NCBI GenBank assembly: GCA_045589515.1
Contig: JAZNPH010000050.1
Location: 137,668 to 201,667, forward strand
DNA length: 64,000 nt
Direction of reading: 5' to 3'
Origin: Eubacteriales bacterium
GTDB lineage: Bacteria > Bacillota > Clostridia > Oscillospirales > CAG-382
Position 1 is the stretch's first letter; the number at the start of each line of letters is the position of its first letter. The notes under the pieces are model-generated. The model ran no database searches, was not told the origin of the DNA, and saw nothing but the letters and a program-made list of their open reading frames with translations. Shown piece after piece: positions 30,011-59,791 of the stretch. Made by a program: the position numbers and the translations under genes.

Positions 30011-30484
30011 ATGAAATTTTCTGCAAACGATCTGTATCTGAGCTATGGTGAAAATCCCCAAGTGAGTCTGCATGACTGTGAGTTTACTGTCAAACGGGAT
30101 GGGGAGGATCTTGTTTTTGATTTCCCGGAAGGCTTTATCTTCGGGAAAGACGGCGCCTTCTACCGTTGCGCCCATGGAACAATCCGCGCAGTGAAAGTGG
30201 GAGAAGAGGACGTGCAGATCTTCGCCATCCGCTGCAAATGGAAGCGGAAAAGATATTGTAAGAAATCGGTTACCATTTCTTTGGAAGAACTGTTGGAGGC
30301 AATGGGAAGTTACCCTTTGGAGAATTATCGGGAATTCTATTCGTCCCATGAATTTTTCTGGAGCTGTTCTCTGTGGAACATTCCCAAGTATAGAAAGAAA
30401 TTGGGAGACGATCTTGAACTCCAAGTCTATTACGACCACTTAGAATACGAGATCTCCGATGAATACAGCCCCTACGAGGGGTGA
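30011..30484 (+). CDS. Hypothetical protein
   Basis: 157-aa ORF with an RBS (GGAAAGG) and a consensus promoter upstream. AT-richer than its surroundings. Confidence 0.5.
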   Translation: MKFSANDLYLSYGENPQVSLHDCEFTVKRDGEDLVFDFPEGFIFGKDGAFYRCAHGTIRAVKVGEEDVQIFAIRCKWKRKRYCKKSVTISLEELLEAMGSYPLENYREFYSSHEFFWSCSLWNIPKYRKKLGDDLELQVYYDHLEYEISDEYSPYEG

Positions 30485-30559: not shown

Positions 30560-30601
30560 CCGAAAACGACAGTTTTCGGCAGTAAAAGTTCTTTGAAGTT
30601 T
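30560..30601 (-). repeat. Partial inverted copy of the dispersed multi-hairpin element (hairpin 2 plus linker)
   Basis: CCGAAAACGACAGTTTTCGG (30560-30579) is the exact reverse complement of 35192-35211. The adjacent ...GTTCTTTGAAGTTT resembles the reverse complement of the AAACTCCAAAGAAAC linker. Confidence 0.6.
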
Positions 30602-30699
30602 AAGCATACCTAAATACAAAAAATATGATAAAATCACTGTGAGAAAACAAACTCTTTTTCGTCTAAAGAGTGAAAGCCAAGGAAAGGAGGGCACCGCCC

Positions 30700-33662: not shown

Positions 33663-34823
33663 TTACTTCAAAGCTACCCGGAGGATGTTCTCCAGCGCGG
33701 CTACCTTTTCCACCACGTCGGCGGAGATCTCGTTGCCGAAATCAAACATAGACACCGCGTAGTTGCCCTTGGATTGGTTTGCCATGGCCTCGATGTTCAC
33801 GCCGATGATGGCAAGAGCACCGGAAATGGCGTTCACCACGCCGGGCACGTTGCGGTGGAGCACCACCAAGCGATGGTCGTGGATGCGGGGCATATGGATC
33901 TCGGGGAAGTTCACGCTGTTCTTGATGTTGCCGTTTTCCAGGAAGTCGATCAGTTCCTCCGCCGCCATCTTGGCACAGTTGTCCTCAGACTCGGGAGTGG
34001 AAGCGCCCAAGTGGGGGATACATACCGCACCCTCCAAGCCCAAAAGCTCTTCCGCAGGGAAGTCGGTGACATAGGAAGCGATCTTGCCGCTCTTCAAGGC
34101 CTCTGCCACGTCGGCAACGTTTGCCAGATCCCCGCGGGAGAGGTTGATGATCCGCACGCCTTCCTTCATCTTGGCGATGTTTTCTTTGTTGATGATGCCC
34201 TTGGTGGTGGGCAGGGCGGGGATGTGGTAGGTGATATAATCCGCATTTGCGTAGATCTCATCGTAATCCGCCGCGGAATGGACGGAGTTCTTCAAGGACC
34301 AGGCCGCCTTGACGGAAAGGAAGGGGTCGCAACCGATGACGTTCATTCCCAGGCTCACCGCCGCGTTGGCAACCATACCGCCGATGGCACCCAAGCCGAT
34401 CACGCCTAAGGTCTTTCCCTTCAGCTCCGGGCCCACGAATTGGGACTTGCCCTTTTCTACCTTCTTGGAGAGCTCGGGGTCACCCTTCAGGGTTCTTGCC
34501 CATTCAATGCCGGCCACTACCTTACGGGAGGCCATCAGCAGTGCCAGAATGGCAAGCTCTTTGACACCGTTTGCGTTGGCGCCGGGTGTGTTGAACACCA
34601 CGATGCCTTCCTCGGCACAGCGCTCCAGGGGGATGTTGTTGACGCCTGCACCTGCGCGGGCGATGGCGGCAAGGGTGGCAGGGAACTGCATATCGTGCAG
34701 TACCGCAGAACGCACCATGATCCCGTCGGGGGATTCCACCTCTGTGCCCACGTTGTACGCGGTCTTGTCAAACACCTCAAGACCTACGTCACTGATCGAA
34801 TTCAAAAGCTGAATGTTTTTCAT
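33663..34823 (-). CDS. serA: D-3-phosphoglycerate dehydrogenase with a C-terminal ACT domain
   Basis: NAD-binding GVIGLGAIGG, catalytic ...LSRG...PHLGAST..., and an ACT-like C-terminus. Downstream of serC. Confidence 0.9.
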   Translation of the reverse strand: MKNIQLLNSISDVGLEVFDKTAYNVGTEVESPDGIMVRSAVLHDMQFPATLAAIARAGAGVNNIPLERCAEEGIVVFNTPGANANGVKELAILALLMASRKVVAGIEWARTLKGDPELSKKVEKGKSQFVGPELKGKTLGVIGLGAIGGMVANAAVSLGMNVIGCDPFLSVKAAWSLKNSVHSAADYDEIYANADYITYHIPALPTTKGIINKENIAKMKEGVRIINLSRGDLANVADVAEALKSGKIASYVTDFPAEELLGLEGAVCIPHLGASTPESEDNCAKMAAEELIDFLENGNIKNSVNFPEIHMPRIHDHRLVVLHRNVPGVVNAISGALAIIGVNIEAMANQSKGNYAVSMFDFGNEISADVVEKVAALENILRVALK

Positions 34824-34845: not shown

Positions 34846-35133
34846 CCCACGCATGGCGACGATCCTTTCTTTAGGTTTATTATGAAATGATTGTTGTAAT
34901 AAACTAATTATATGAAATTGCCGTTTACGGCAATTTCCCCCTGAAAAACGATCCGCTTTTCAGGATTTCCACTGCATGGTAGCAGTCCTTTCTGAGTTTT
35001 ATTATGAATGTTGTTTTAGGATACACTACGCAGATGAAATTGCCACTTGTGGCAATTTCCCCCTGAAAAACGATCCGTTTTTCAGGATTCCCACCTGCAT
35101 GGCGACGATCCTTTCTGTGTATTATTATGAAAT
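34846..35133. repeat. Tandem repeat with an exact 123-bp period, about 2.3 copies, filling the serC-serA spacer
   Basis: The GCATGG anchor recurs at 34851, 34974 and 35097. Each unit carries ATTGCC(N6)GGCAAT and CCTGAAAA(N9)TTTTCAGG hairpins. A compensatory change is seen between units (ATTGCCG..CGGCAAT versus ATTGCCA..TGGCAAT). Confidence 0.8.
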
Positions 35134-35139
35134 TTATTC

Positions 35140-35296
35140 AAGAACCTTTCTTTCGAAAAGAAAGGTTCTTAAACTCCAAAGAAACTGACTTCCGAAAACT
35201 GTCGTTTTCGGTTTTTTATTTATGATCCTCAAAATACCGGGTTCTTAGGGAGCGGGCTCCCTAAGCGGAGATTCTTAAGAGGCGGCGCCTCTTAAG
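35140..35296. repeat. Dispersed four-hairpin intergenic element, copy A
   Basis: Hairpins at 35140-35170, 35192-35211, 35244-35265 and 35274-35296, collinear with 54436-54590. Confidence 0.8.
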
Positions 35297-35307: not shown

Positions 35308-36384
35308 TCAACCGTTCTCTTTTTCGAACTTCTCCATAAAGGCGATCAGCGCCTCTACGCCTGCCACGGGCATAGCGTTGTAAATAGAAGCGCGCATACC
35401 GCCAACGGAGCGGTGTCCCTTCAGGTTGGAAAGCCCCGCCGCAGTTGCCTCGGCACAGAACTTCTTGTCCAGATCGGCATCCCCGGTGACAAAGCAAACG
35501 TTCATCAGAGAGCGGCATTCCTTTTCTGCGGTGGCCTTGAACAGCTTGCTGTTGTCCAGGAAGTCGTAAAGCATACCCGCCTTGGTCTCGTTGATCTTCT
35601 GCATCTCCTCCAAGCCGCCAAGCTCCAACAGCCACTTGTACACCAAGCCTGCCACGTAAATGGAGTAGCAGGGCGGGGTGTTGTACATAGAGCCGTTTTC
35701 CGCCTGGATCTTGTATTGCAGCATCACGGGACAGCAATCCATGGCGTCGCCGATGAGATCCTCACGGACGATCACCAAGGTCATGCCCGCGGGTGCCATG
35801 TTCTTCTGTGCACCTGCGTAGATCAGACCGTAATCTGCCACGTTCACAGGCTTGGAAAGAATACCGGAGGACATATCCGCCACCAGGGGGATATCACCCG
35901 TCTGAGGAACGTAAGGATACACCGTGCCGAAAATGGTGTTGTTGTAGCAAATGTGTACGTAGTCGGAATCCTTGTTGAACTCCGTCACGTAGGGGACGTA
36001 GGTGAAGTTCTTGTCCTTGGAGGAGGCAAGAATGCGCACTTCGCCGTAACGCTCCGCTTCCTTGGCCGCCTTGCCGGAGAACTGACCGCTGACGATGTAG
36101 TCCGCCTTGCCGTTCTTGGTCATCAGGTTCAAGGGTACCGCGGAGAACTGGGTGGAAGCACCGCCCTGGAGGAACAATACCTTGTAATTATCGGGAATGT
36201 TCATCAGCTTGCGAAGATCCGCCTCGGTCTGATCGATGATCTGCTGATACACCGCAGATCTATGGCTCATCTCCATTACGGACATCCCACTGCCGTTGTA
36301 ATTCAGCATTTCGGATGCGGCACGCTCCAACACGGGAACGGGCAGCATGGAAGGTCCTGCGGAGAAGTTAAAAATACGATTCAT
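35308..36384 (-). CDS. serC: Phosphoserine aminotransferase
   Basis: MNRIFNFSAGPSMLPVPVLERAASEML...MSHRS...FLQGGASTQF... are canonical SerC motifs. Confidence 0.92.
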   Translation of the reverse strand: MNRIFNFSAGPSMLPVPVLERAASEMLNYNGSGMSVMEMSHRSAVYQQIIDQTEADLRKLMNIPDNYKVLFLQGGASTQFSAVPLNLMTKNGKADYIVSGQFSGKAAKEAERYGEVRILASSKDKNFTYVPYVTEFNKDSDYVHICYNNTIFGTVYPYVPQTGDIPLVADMSSGILSKPVNVADYGLIYAGAQKNMAPAGMTLVIVREDLIGDAMDCCPVMLQYKIQAENGSMYNTPPCYSIYVAGLVYKWLLELGGLEEMQKINETKAGMLYDFLDNSKLFKATAEKECRSLMNVCFVTGDADLDKKFCAEATAAGLSNLKGHRSVGGMRASIYNAMPVAGVEALIAFMEKFEKENG

Positions 36385-53489: not shown

Positions 53490-54422
53490 ATGAAAATGAA
53501 ACGAAATACATATTTTCCCGAAGGCGGGCTGTTGCGTACCGAAAGTAACCGCACCTATACCGCCTCGGCCGAGGGCTTGCGGTGCGCCATGGAGGATGGG
53601 ATCATCCTGGAGGGACGAAGCTATCTCTGCGACGAGGATCGGGATCTTCACGTGTCTCTCGGGCAGTTCCGCGGGATCATGCCCAAGGAGGAATGCCTGT
53701 ACACAGGCGGGGGAGAGATCAAGGATATCGCCATCATCTCCCGTGTGGGGAAGCCTGTCTGCTGTAAGATCATCGATCTGAAAACCGACGAAAACGGCAG
53801 GCCCTACCCCATCCTTTCCCGCAAGGAGGCCCAGCGGGAATGTATGCATAACATGATCGAAAAGCTTTGCCCCGGGGACGTGGTGGATGCAAAGGTCACC
53901 CATCTGGACCCCTTCGGTGCTTTCTGCGATATCGGTTGCGGGCTGGTGTCCCTTATGCCCATCGACTGTATGTCCGTTTCCCGTATCAACCACCCCAGAG
54001 AACGGTTCGTGGTGGGGCAGAGGATCCGTGCGGTGATCAAGCATTCCGCAGACGAGTTCGGGCGGATCACCCTTTCCCATCGGGAGCTTTTGGGCACCTG
54101 GGAGGAGAACGCAAGCCGCTTTTCTCCGGGGCAGACCGCCGCAGGCATCGTCCGCAGTGTGGAAAGCTACGGTATCTTCGTGGAGCTTGCACCCAATCTG
54201 GCAGGACTTGCGGAGTGCAAGTCCGACGTACATCCCGGACAGAACGCCGCGGTGTATATCAAGAGCATCCTCCCGGGGAAGATGAAGATCAAGCTGGCCA
54301 TCATCGACGTGTGCGAGGGGGACGGGCTGATGAACGATTACCGCTACCCCGACACCCACCATCTGGACGGCTGGCAGTATTCACCCCCGGAATGCGATAA
54401 GCTCATCGAAACGGTGTTTTGA
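53490..54422 (+). CDS. S1 RNA-binding domain-containing protein
   Basis: Two S1-like OB folds (...GDVVDAKVTHLDPFGAFCDIGCGLVSLMP... and ...GQTAAGIVRSVESYGIFVELAPNLAGLAE...). The ATG at 53490 gives MKMKRN.... Confidence 0.75.
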   Translation: MKMKRNTYFPEGGLLRTESNRTYTASAEGLRCAMEDGIILEGRSYLCDEDRDLHVSLGQFRGIMPKEECLYTGGGEIKDIAIISRVGKPVCCKIIDLKTDENGRPYPILSRKEAQRECMHNMIEKLCPGDVVDAKVTHLDPFGAFCDIGCGLVSLMPIDCMSVSRINHPRERFVVGQRIRAVIKHSADEFGRITLSHRELLGTWEENASRFSPGQTAAGIVRSVESYGIFVELAPNLAGLAECKSDVHPGQNAAVYIKSILPGKMKIKLAIIDVCEGDGLMNDYRYPDTHHLDGWQYSPPECDKLIETVF

Positions 54423-54435
54423 TAAGGATTTACGC

Positions 54436-54590
54436 ATAAGAACCTTTCTTTGAAAAGAAAGGTTCTTATGAAACTCCAAAGAAACTTGAATGCCAAAAAC
54501 TGTCGTTTTTGGAGAAATACATATTGAATACGGGATTCTAAAGGGACGAGTCCCTTTAGCGGAGATTCATAAGAGGCGGCGCCTCTTATG
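54436..54590. repeat. Dispersed four-hairpin intergenic element, copy B
   Basis: Hairpins at 54436-54469, 54493-54512, 54538-54559 and 54568-54590. The order and linkers match copy A (AAACTCCAAAGAAAC, CGGAGATT), with compensatory stem changes. Confidence 0.8.
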
Positions 54591-54593
54591 TGT

Positions 54594-55859
54594 TTAAAAT
54601 AGGAAATCAAATTCTACGTCGTAAATGTTGACGGTGTCACCCTCGTCGATGCCCGCATCCTCCAGGGCTTGGATCACGCCCTTTTCCCGCAAAAACTTCT
54701 GGAAGTACTGCAGGGATTCGTAGCTGTCGAAATCCGTGCGGCCGATGAGCTTCAGCAGCCATTCGCCCTTCACGAAGAAGGTGTTGCCGTTTCTGGTCAC
54801 GTCCACGGAATAATCTTCCTTTTCGGGCTCGGGGGCAATATACTCCGGCTCGTAAATGCGGATGGGAGGGAGCTTGTCCAGCAATGCGGCGGTGGCCTTC
54901 ATCAGCTCGGATACGCCCTCGTCGATCTCACCGGCGATGAGGAACAGCTGCCAGCCCTTTTCTTCTGCAAAGGCCTTGATCTCTTGGTACTTCTCTTCGT
55001 CGTAGCCAAGGTCGATCTTGTTGCCCACCAGAATCTGAGGACGGCTTGCCAGCTCGGGGCTGTATTTTTCCAGCTCCGCGTTGATCTTCTTGATGTCCTC
55101 CAAAGGATCGGGACGTTCCGACCCGGAAATATCAAAGATGTGCAGGATCAACCTGCAACGGTCGATATGCCGCAGGAAATCGTGACCCAGCCCCGCACCC
55201 TCGGAAGCACCCTCAATAAGTCCGGGAATGTCCGCGGCCACAAAGGTCTTGTCGTACACGGAGATCACACCCAAATTGGGAGAAAGGGTGGTGAAATGGT
55301 AGTTGGCCACCTTGGGCCTGGCAGAGCTGATCACGGAAAGCAGGGTGGACTTGCCCACGTTGGGGAATCCTGCAAACCCTACGTCTGCCAGCATTTTCAG
55401 CTCCAGCGTCAGGTTCTTTTCTTCACCGGGAGTGCCCTCCTTGGCAAAACGGGGCACCTGGCGGGTAGCCGTGGCGAAATGGGTGTTTCCCCAGCCGCCT
55501 CTGCCGCCTTTTGCAACCACGAAGCGGTCGCAATCCCCCATGTCCTTGATCACCAAGCCGGTCTCCGCATCGCGGATCACCGTTCCGGGAGGCACGGGGA
55601 TCTCCAGATCCTTGCCGTATTTCCCCATGAACTTCTTTGCGGCACCGTCGGCACCGTTCTCCGCCACGAACTTGCGGCGGTACTTGAAGTCCAGCAGGGT
55701 GTTCTTTCCTTCGTCGGTGACAAAGACGATGCTGCCGCCCTTGCCGCCGTCTCCGCCGTCGGGTCCTCCGTGGGAGACGTATTTTTCTCGGCGGAAGGAC
55801 ACGGCACCGTTGCCGCCCTTGCCCGCCTTGACAAAAATATTTACCTTATCAATAAACAT
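54594..55859 (-). CDS. obg: GTPase Obg/CgtA
   Basis: MFIDKVNIFVKAGKGGNGAVSFRREKY...GGPDGGDGGKGG..., G1 GFPNVGKST, and a C-terminal OCT/TGS-like domain. Confidence 0.95.
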   Translation of the reverse strand: MFIDKVNIFVKAGKGGNGAVSFRREKYVSHGGPDGGDGGKGGSIVFVTDEGKNTLLDFKYRRKFVAENGADGAAKKFMGKYGKDLEIPVPPGTVIRDAETGLVIKDMGDCDRFVVAKGGRGGWGNTHFATATRQVPRFAKEGTPGEEKNLTLELKMLADVGFAGFPNVGKSTLLSVISSARPKVANYHFTTLSPNLGVISVYDKTFVAADIPGLIEGASEGAGLGHDFLRHIDRCRLILHIFDISGSERPDPLEDIKKINAELEKYSPELASRPQILVGNKIDLGYDEEKYQEIKAFAEEKGWQLFLIAGEIDEGVSELMKATAALLDKLPPIRIYEPEYIAPEPEKEDYSVDVTRNGNTFFVKGEWLLKLIGRTDFDSYESLQYFQKFLREKGVIQALEDAGIDEGDTVNIYDVEFDFLF

Positions 55860-59634: not shown

Positions 59635-59791
59635 AAAGGCAAGAGAAAAGCCGCAAGAAAGCGGCTGATTCTCTATCTTTTTATCTTCGCAATGAAAAGT
59701 TTTTGAAGATTTTCAAGAAACTTTTTTCAAAAAGTTTCTTGAATGGGGCTTGGGGCAACGCCCCACCATCGCCCCCTCCTTCTTGTCGCCC

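Follow-up and report, generated by a model that had tools for sequence, protein, structure and literature searches.

The stretch of DNA analyzed here (64,000 nucleotides, hereafter the window) corresponds to positions 137668-201667 of contig C50 of G000, a 2.40-Mb MAG of 98 contigs with 53.6% G+C and a completeness of 98%. Its Obg is 100% identical to that of the MAG "Clostridia bacterium RGIG6254, sheep rectum", and its relatives are uncultured Clostridia/Oscillospiraceae of the ruminant gut. Two ~155-nt copies of an intergenic element are found at 35140-35296 and 54436-54590, and their sequences match the description given in an earlier note on this DNA. Copy 1 lies between serC (35308-36384) and serA (33663-34823), both on the minus strand, where the rest of the spacer is filled by a tandem repeat with a 122-nt unit in 2.3 copies (34851-35131), which is context and not a member of the family. 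Copy 2 fills the gap between a convergent S1-domain gene and obg and is therefore downstream of both.

When folded as single-stranded DNA, both copies form the same four hairpins (H1 to H4) in the same order, as the earlier note had proposed, with folding energies of -40.2 and -39.5 kcal/mol for copies 1 and 2, respectively (z = -6.6 and -8.5; none of 200 shuffled sequences was as stable). On the plus strand of copy 1, H1 (35140-35170; AAGAACCTTTCTTT-CGA-AAAGAAAGGTTCTT, 14 bp in a scan for perfect hairpins) is followed by a tail (35171-35185) that consists of the turn AAA, the pyrimidine block CTCC, the purine block AAAGAAA and a C, and that mirrors the 3' arm of H1. H2 (35192-35211; CCGAAAAC-TGTC-GTTTTCGG) then precedes a T-run at 35212-35221, and CCGGGTT at 35237-35243 precedes H3 (35244-35265; CTTAGGGAG-CGGG-CTCCCTAAG). 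H4 (35274-35296; CTTAAGAGGC-GGC-GCCTCTTAAG) carries its tail on the 5' side (35266-35273; CGGAGATT), where CGGAGA is the mirror image of AGAGGC in the H4 5' arm, and the serC stop codon lies beyond it at 35308-35310 on the minus strand. Copy 2, likewise read on the plus strand, begins 12 nt past the stop codon of the S1-domain gene (54420-54422) with H1 (54435-54470; CATAAGAACCTTTCTT..AAGAAAGGTTCTTATG, 16 bp) and its tail (54471-54485; AAA-CTCC-AAAGAAA-C), continues with H2 (54493-54512; CCAAAAAC-TGTC-GTTTTTGG) and H3 (54538-54559; CTAAAGGGA-CGAG-TCCCTTTAG), and ends with the 5' tail of H4 (54560-54567; CGGAGATT) and H4 itself (54568-54590; CATAAGAGGC-GGC-GCCTCTTATG), next to the obg stop codon at 54594-54596 on the minus strand.

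The two copies are 79.5% identical across 161 nt, and the compensatory stem differences described between them are real: pairing is kept in H2 (CCGAAAAC/GTTTTCGG versus CCAAAAAC/GTTTTTGG), in H3 (CTTAGGGAG/CTCCCTAAG versus CTAAAGGGA/TCCCTTTAG) and in H4 (CTTAAG../..CTTAAG versus CATAAG../..CTTATG). The partial copy reported previously is also genuine; it spans 30560-30605 in reverse orientation, between a plus-strand gene ending at 30484 and a sigma-factor gene starting at 30670, and retains H2, the connector, the tail CTTCAAAGAA and the last H1 bases GCTTAAA, H1 itself having been deleted. A fourth, divergent member is found on the minus strand at 59699-59764, where GGGGC-GTT-GCCCC with the tail AGCCCC is followed by TTCAAGAAACTTTTT-GAA-AAAAAGTTTCTTGAA with the tail AATCTTCAAAAAC and then by a canonical terminator. 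Two negative statements of the earlier note do not hold. The run TTTTTTATTT follows H2 of copy 1 on the plus strand, so it is not the case that every copy is without a U-tract; that strand is antisense to serC and serA, and this hairpin is the only one that scores as an intrinsic terminator, with none in copy 2. Terminal inverted repeats, said to be absent, are formed by the ends of the element itself, H1 plus tail on one side and tail plus H4 on the other. A search of the window against Rfam gave no match at the gathering score and, around both copies, only chance-level matches at E values up to 10.

Across the whole source genome, module A (H1, tail and H2) has 103 non-overlapping matches in iterated nhmmer searches and 122 matches to a covariance model, while module B (H3, tail and H4) has 24 nhmmer matches, which bears out the suggestion of a dispersed, modular and REP/BIME-like intergenic family. 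As in REP/BIME systems, the units are short, palindromic, extragenic, present in high copy number and combined into mosaics. Module A alone is the commonest arrangement, and A+B is that of both full copies in the window; paired inverted A units, either sharing one H2 or each with its own, also occur, and in about eight copies an extra hairpin (CTCGCC-NNNN-GGCGAG) is situated precisely in the turn between H1 and the tail. The palindromes share a conserved CTTAAG core. A conserved GG(G/A)(A/T)ACGC is found 5' of H1, and its reverse complement closes the composite elements, such that the A+B and A+A' forms end in inverted hairpin-plus-tail units with the termini GGGAACGC ... GCGTTCCC, following the pattern GG(G/A)(A/T)ACGC ... 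GCGT(T/A)CC. Terminal inverted repeats of the kind expected of MITEs are therefore present in the composite forms, while copies of A alone have only one such end.

According to our own gene calls, the source genome has 1932 genes and is 87% coding. Among its 76 classifiable module copies, 30 are located between convergent genes (194 such spacers in the genome), 27 in tandem forward spacers (320), 18 in tandem reverse spacers (350) and only one between divergent genes (184), and location at gene 3' ends is thus a property of the family as a whole. The single orientation relative to the transcript that had been deduced from the window does not extend to the genome, given the 27 forward and 18 reverse copies between tandem genes and the 30 copies between convergent ones. 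Where a gene ends on the H1 side, the median distance from its stop codon to H1 is 17 nt (quartiles 13 and 34). Canonical terminators consisting of a hairpin and a T-run are often found 3' of the element, in agreement with the earlier view that these are not ordinary terminators; the element hence lies within 3' untranslated regions and does not substitute for the terminator. Some convergent spacers consist of the element and nothing else, and some copies are found within operon junctions or directly upstream of a start codon.

The family has a limited taxonomic range. Of the 61 species genomes of the genus, eight contain at least 40 matches and a ninth contains 16; about ten further species have a few, and about 42 lack the elements altogether. 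In 103 genomes from 14 other genera of the same family, only one weak match was found, in one genome, and none of 12 other families of the same order has the elements. Within this range, elements have been gained, lost and re-inserted at individual spacers. The spacer between obg and the S1-domain gene, for instance, is B+A in G000 and in relatives whose Obg is 99-100% identical, is occupied by unrelated hairpins in relatives whose Obg is 95-98% identical, and is ~10 nt in distant congeners. In the MAG SIG690 the same spacer contains the entire A+B element in the opposite orientation, so A+B must have been inserted as a unit at least twice, and the insertion polymorphism among close relatives that typifies MITEs is seen at this spacer. 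Similarly, serC and serA overlap (TAATG) in three species, and the element lies between them in G000, G007 and G008. No target-site duplication was found: when G000, G007, G008 and other relatives were compared, copies were common to the genomes, or other modules had rebuilt the spacer; nor did the relatives compared include a clean filled/empty pair for module A, the sole clean indel, between G007 and G008, being of a different GC-rich module. Where loci of G007 or G008 were aligned with G000 across copies that both possess (15 alignments), identity is 88.2% in the orthologous elements, 79.4% in the non-coding DNA beside them and 85.4% in coding DNA. The short distance between stop codon and element, together with conservation above that of the flanking non-coding DNA, could equally reflect a function for the host.

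The proposal that the stems are kept through compensatory change can be extended to 45 genomic copies of module A. Of all cells in these stems, 97.9% pair, and 15 of the 24 pairs have changed on both sides, which none of 500 shuffles matched, with the proviso that related copies share descent and the counts overstate the number of independent events. An additional covarying pair, columns 1-41, lengthens H1 to 17 bp. After the stems, the strongest covariation is that between H1 and the segment 3' of it, a relation that the earlier note does not mention. By mutual information, column 7 is coupled to 46, 9 to 47 and 14 to 52, each time in parallel order. The letters in four parallel arm-tail column pairs are complementary in 96.7% of cases, as opposed to 62-73% when the columns are slid by one or two, and 18 cells of the same pairs have changed on both sides (0/500 shuffles match). 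The tail (turn, TCTCC, AAAGAAA) mirrors the 3' arm of H1 (AAAGAAA-GG-TTCTT); put differently, it complements the other arm when both are read 5' to 3'.

The polarity of this relation was tested on 152 units parsed from 14 genomes (G000 and 13 others), among which there are 99 distinct haplotypes. For the inner block, in which T(a)-C-T(b) of the 5' arm is set against A(c)-G-A(d) of the tail, the parallel alignment is better in 26 haplotypes and the antiparallel alignment in none (p = 3e-8), with 73 ties; the observed score is 5.44, while shuffled tails give 3.57 +/- 0.13. Examples include T5CT4 with A5GA4 and TTCTTTT with AAGAAAA. For the outer block, in which purines of the 5' arm are set against pyrimidines of the tail, the parallel alignment is better in 31 haplotypes and the antiparallel in 13, all large margins being parallel, and the score is 2.92 compared with 0.87 +/- 0.19 for shuffled tails; here GAAA corresponds to CTTC, GGGGAA to CCCTTC and GAGAGAAAAA to CTCTTTTTTC, and a further arm, GAGAGAGGGA, corresponds to the tail CTCTCTCCCC. 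The fit is imperfect in that the tail is one residue short of the arm block, and the CC/GG step and several G-rich variants violate the rule. The mirror rule is kept in the diverged copies of the 13 other genomes, and in one orthologous copy both arms and the tail have changed together between G008 and G000. The family as a whole shows three-way covariation with parallel polarity.

The relation is also found outside H1. When all 432 perfect hairpins of G000 were scanned, 22 mirror, 6 direct, 2 inverted and 0 shuffled matches scored at least 18. Among the best of these matches is a second family of hairpins that is unrelated in sequence (ACGAGAGAGGGGC-TTTT .. AAAA-GCCCCTCTCTCGT, then GCTCTCTCCCCAAAAA) and obeys the mirror rule across 16 nt with a mirror score of 27 and a direct score of 14. 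H4 and the linker before it show the same relation, CGGAGA occurring with AGAGGC and CGGGGA with AGGGGC. Watson-Crick partners for the tail were considered in the 5' flank (GGGAA), the 5' arm and the A-B linkers and were rejected, as they either fail for copies consisting of A alone or have the wrong polarity.

A mirror relation of this kind is the rule of the intrastrand triplex, in which a third strand that is pyrimidine-rich runs parallel to the purine arm (T.A-T, C+.G-C) and one that is purine-rich runs antiparallel to it (A.A-T, G.G-C), as set out in PMC4666352. Templated copying would not give rise to mirror repeats, and inside a unit there is no Watson-Crick partner for the tail; we read the hairpin and its tail as a potential triplex. 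Tolerance of an extra hairpin in the turn between H1 and the tail is what a fold-back model predicts. We propose that the main building block is a hairpin with an adjoining tail, and that the tail would lie as a third strand in the major groove of the hairpin. H4 and, weakly, H3 are short homopurine/homopyrimidine units that obey this sequence rule, and H1 is a two-block form in which the tail switches strands: in the outer block, TCTCC of the tail agrees with the 5'-arm purines under the rule for the pyrimidine motif, and in the inner block, AAAGAAA agrees with the 3'-arm purines under that for the purine motif. No such tail accompanies H2, a plain hairpin.

Judged from sequence comparison, a modular, MITE/BIME-like family of intergenic DNA repeats is probably represented in the window by four members, two of them full, one decayed and one divergent; it has spread within one clade of a genus of uncultured ruminant-gut Clostridia, and its main hairpin-plus-tail units follow the intrastrand-triplex rule. 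The feature preserved would be the fold that the single-stranded DNA adopts, not its sequence, and either an enzyme or replication and recombination may act on this fold such that copies spread and are homogenized. Copies would then survive where insertion does the least harm, between the stop codon and the next terminator or promoter, and their effects on neighbouring genes are probably confined to added structure in the 3' untranslated region. More tentatively, we suggest that H1 and its tail could form a natural alternate-strand (two-block) intramolecular triple helix of ~12-16 triads, and that selection may keep this fold, which might form in single-stranded DNA in vivo and be used either by a mobilizing enzyme or, at the ends of genes, as a barrier that works in both orientations. 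Purine-motif triplexes are reported in PMC4666352 to be unable to form in RNA, and as the purine-motif half of H1 covaries, a complete H1 triplex would point to single-stranded DNA. For the published E. coli motif, that account gives triplex formation solely in isolated single strands, with none detected in vivo. If the two-block triple helix were real, H1 and its tail would be the first alternate-strand triplex design seen in a genome, and its comparative support would be the three-way covariation over subfamilies, two unrelated hairpin families and 14 genomes.

A different explanation is that the element acts as RNA. Once transcribed, the hairpins, to which a short U.A-U / C+.G-C triple helix might be added, would in this case shield mRNA 3' ends from exonucleases or block read-through between closely packed genes. 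Consistent with such a role, copies are almost solely downstream of genes, usually 10-20 nt past the stop codon and ahead of the terminator or the next promoter; some convergent spacers hold nothing else; orthologous copies are better conserved than the non-coding DNA around them; and, according to PMC4666352, RNA could adopt the pyrimidine-motif half of each unit. Both transcript orientations are common (27 versus 18), however, and the half that covaries by the purine motif is the one reported not to form in RNA (PMC4666352). Moreover, most species of the genus are without the family, the same spacers being ~10 nt or absent there, some copies are in operon junctions or just ahead of a start codon, and PIT elements are described in PMC4666352 as having no terminator activity in E. 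coli. We therefore consider an RNA element at the 3' untranslated region unlikely.

It could also be argued that the mirror relation has no structural meaning, and that these are ordinary hairpin MITEs in which low-complexity runs of A, T and C have descended from a few master sequences. Many blocks are indeed mirror-symmetric in themselves (TTTCTTT/AAAGAAA), which accounts for the 73 ties among 99 haplotypes, direct-repeat scores are also high at a low threshold (58 versus 62 at a score of at least 14), and the copies are related through descent. Yet no asymmetric inner block departs from the parallel rule (26 to 0), the tail matches the arm in each of at least eight length classes (T2CT4, T5CT4, T3CT2 and others), and the second hairpin family, which shares no sequence with the first, keeps the rule over 16 nt. 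Given also that mirror repeats would not be expected from any templated copying process, this explanation is improbable. Even less credence can be given to the idea that the palindromes are double-stranded DNA sites for a dimeric host protein, nucleoid-associated or regulatory: perfect palindromes with a conserved CTTAAG core do occur at many intergenic sites, but the stem positions vary freely while pairing is kept, which fits a folded strand and not base-specific reading, promoter-bearing divergent spacers are avoided, and a mirror-image third segment would presumably mean nothing to a protein that reads the duplex.

Least likely of all is movement by a specific enzyme of a known type, either a RAYT (Y1 HUH transposase), as in a REP/BIME system, or a DUF559 nuclease acting on triplex-type repeats, even though the mosaic organization is REP/BIME-like, one Y1_Tnp gene is present in G000 and DUF559 genes are found in five of the eight high-copy species. 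The Y1 gene of G000 encodes an ordinary 156-aa IS200-type TnpA with its own, unrelated end hairpin and is not of the repeat-flanked type, and the presence of Y1_Tnp is uncorrelated with copy number over the 61 species of the genus; it is absent from the high-copy G032, G039, G008 and G052 and present in the zero-copy G009, G010 and G003. DUF559 was not found in G000, with its 122 copies and 98% completeness, or in G008, with 89 copies. At the 14 DUF559 loci inspected in the genus, the gene never lies between A or B units, and at 13 of them the flanks that were inspected contain neither module; at L180, in G031, one nhmmer match to module B lies ~340 nt downstream of the gene. DUF559 is thus largely refuted as a partner, as is RAYT. 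The DUF559 genes of G039 and G053 adjoin a different GC-rich repeat (CCTTCCCC..GGGGAAGG). About 21 of the GC-rich motifs found next to DUF559 genes are also present in G000, which has no DUF559 gene. Searches for the Y1_Tnp and DUF559 families yielded no parent transposase with the same ends, and a self-BLAST of all predicted proteins of the MAG for multi-copy transposases gave only fragments of sugar-kinase and surface proteins. Likewise, no match to the element was found in viral contigs by exact-pattern scan or in plasmids and phages by blastn. As G000 is a MAG of 98 contigs, a partner gene could be missing from the assembly.

Intrastrand triplex repeats have been known since the 1990s. The closest class to the elements described here is that of the BoxC, PIT and TMECO repeats (Hoyne et al. 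2000 as cited in Holder et al. 2015, PMC4666352), for which the latter paper gives triplex formation in vitro only and no known function or partner enzyme. By the same account (PMC4666352), these repeats resemble ours in being short, high-copy and strictly intergenic, in having three consecutive blocks on one strand of which the third mirrors the purine or pyrimidine arm, in lacking strand bias, in frequently occurring as inverted pairs at strain-variable loci, and in having very unequal copy numbers in close relatives. The sequence rule of the class, three blocks with the correct polarity, is followed by H4 (CGGAGA / AGAGGC / GCCTCT) and, in two blocks, by H1. A continuous homopurine tract is present in H4 with its tail and in the GAGAGAGGGAC family, which are homopurine units of the BoxC/PIT/TMECO type. 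It is not present in H1 (AAGAA-CC-TTTCTTT), whose arms switch from purine to pyrimidine, so that H1 is a variant and not a standard member of the class; with this switch within the arm, the tail reads alternate strands. The TMECO sequence itself is unlike those found here, and its consensus (CCCTCNCCC N3-6 GGGNGAGGG N3 GGGNGAGGG) has no match on either strand of G000. In addition, the connection in H1 is 17 nt, whereas loops of 1-6 nt were permitted in the published search (PMC4666352), and our units are built into mosaics of ~80-165 nt together with plain hairpins (H2). Copies here are mostly downstream of genes and their arms and tails covary strongly among subfamilies, while TMECO copies, as described in PMC4666352, are more often upstream and are nearly identical. 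The BoxC, PIT and TMECO copies are thus too uniform to reveal covariation, and the present family is diverse enough to do so, with the polarity that the motif requires.

Palindromic units are joined with fixed linkers into mosaics in the REP/BIME elements of Enterobacteria as well, with hundreds of intergenic copies located mostly at gene 3' ends and operon junctions. Our elements share with them, on general knowledge and the introduction of PMC4666352, the mosaic of palindromic units, the location at gene 3' ends and the occurrence in both orientations. They differ in having neither an association with RAYT nor a conserved 5' motif of the GTAG type, in carrying a mirror tail and in belonging to a genus of Clostridia. 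Bacterial MITEs include the Correia elements of Neisseria and the BOX and RUP elements of pneumococci, with A/B modularity in the manner of BOX. Compared with MITEs by general description and not by sequence, the elements are alike in their length of 80-165 nt, their inverted-repeat ends, their modularity, their presence/absence and orientation polymorphism in close relatives and, by position, their placement within neighbouring mRNAs. They are unlike MITEs in that neither a target-site duplication nor a cognate transposase was found, that the ends consist of a hairpin and a third-strand tail, and that half-elements (A alone) are commonest.

As far as their sequences can tell, the elements add a new, two-block form to the known class of intrastrand-triplex repeats and are assembled into MITE/BIME-like mosaics. 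The joint changes in arms and tail offer comparative evidence that a three-stranded fold is being kept, and they provide dozens of natural variants for biophysical work. Because of the two-block design, searches that demand a continuous purine tract and short loops miss such elements, which may consequently be under-counted. In this genome, the repeats account for many odd stable hairpins after stop codons, and several spacers, such as those of serC-serA and obg, have been rebuilt through their insertions.

Copy 1 of the full element (window 35140-35296) lies in the spacer between serC and serA, the remainder of which is filled by a 122-nt tandem repeat (window 34851-35131; 2.3 copies with 80% matches). 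Each 122-nt unit contains two hairpins, one of which is H2-like (CCTGAAAAAC-GATC-GTTTTTCAGG). Because serC and serA overlap (TAATG) in three congeners, the entire 484-nt spacer is DNA inserted at what was once an operon junction. A divergent member of the same repeat family is found on the minus strand at window 59699-59764, 3' of the stop codon of a minus-strand gene, where a GGGGC/GCCCC hairpin with its tail is followed by a 15-bp AAGAAAC-TTTTT hairpin with the tail TCTTCAAAAA and then by a canonical terminator. This member was not picked up by the module-A HMM.

Elsewhere in the source genome, G000, module A (H1, tail and H2) occurs at C40:9929-10120, C32:16885-17070 and C67:1706-1890. Near-identical sequence common to the three copies continues for more than 110 nt downstream of the module, and contig ends are found near two of them; all three are parts of a larger repeated segment. 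About 9.9 kb ahead of the window and before a minus-strand gene, two A units overlap in inverted orientation (C50:127684-127810) and account for a perfect 17-bp stem there.

The single IS200-type Y1 transposase gene of G000 (156 aa; C45:51055-51411, locus L001 1429-1899) carries its own 16-bp end hairpin and has no relation to the family.

G000 also harbors a second two-block family of hairpins with mirror tails, unrelated in sequence, in which ACGAGAGAGGGGC-TTTT..AAAA-GCCCCTCTCTCGT is followed by GCTCTCTCCCCAAAAA (C41:20027-20064, with further sites at C75:740, C20:13480, C10:54053, C3:27457 and C24:4589). Its mirror score is 27 versus a direct-repeat score of 14.

At 21 sites G000 carries BoxC-like motifs rich in G+C, with the form GGTCCCCCTTCCCC-loop-GGGGAAGG or the inverse of this, and many of them form inverted pairs spaced by ~130 nt (e.g., C23:726/871, C27:8177/8306, C30:966/1095, C56:19610/19746 and C85:4580/4710). 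The same repeat adjoins DUF559 nuclease genes in the sister species G039 and G053, although G000, despite its motifs, lacks a DUF559 gene. Gain and loss affect other hairpin modules of the genus as well: a 144-nt block of GC-rich hairpin modules, situated ~17 nt past a stop codon in congener G007 (L037 258-400), is missing from the corresponding G008 locus (L048).
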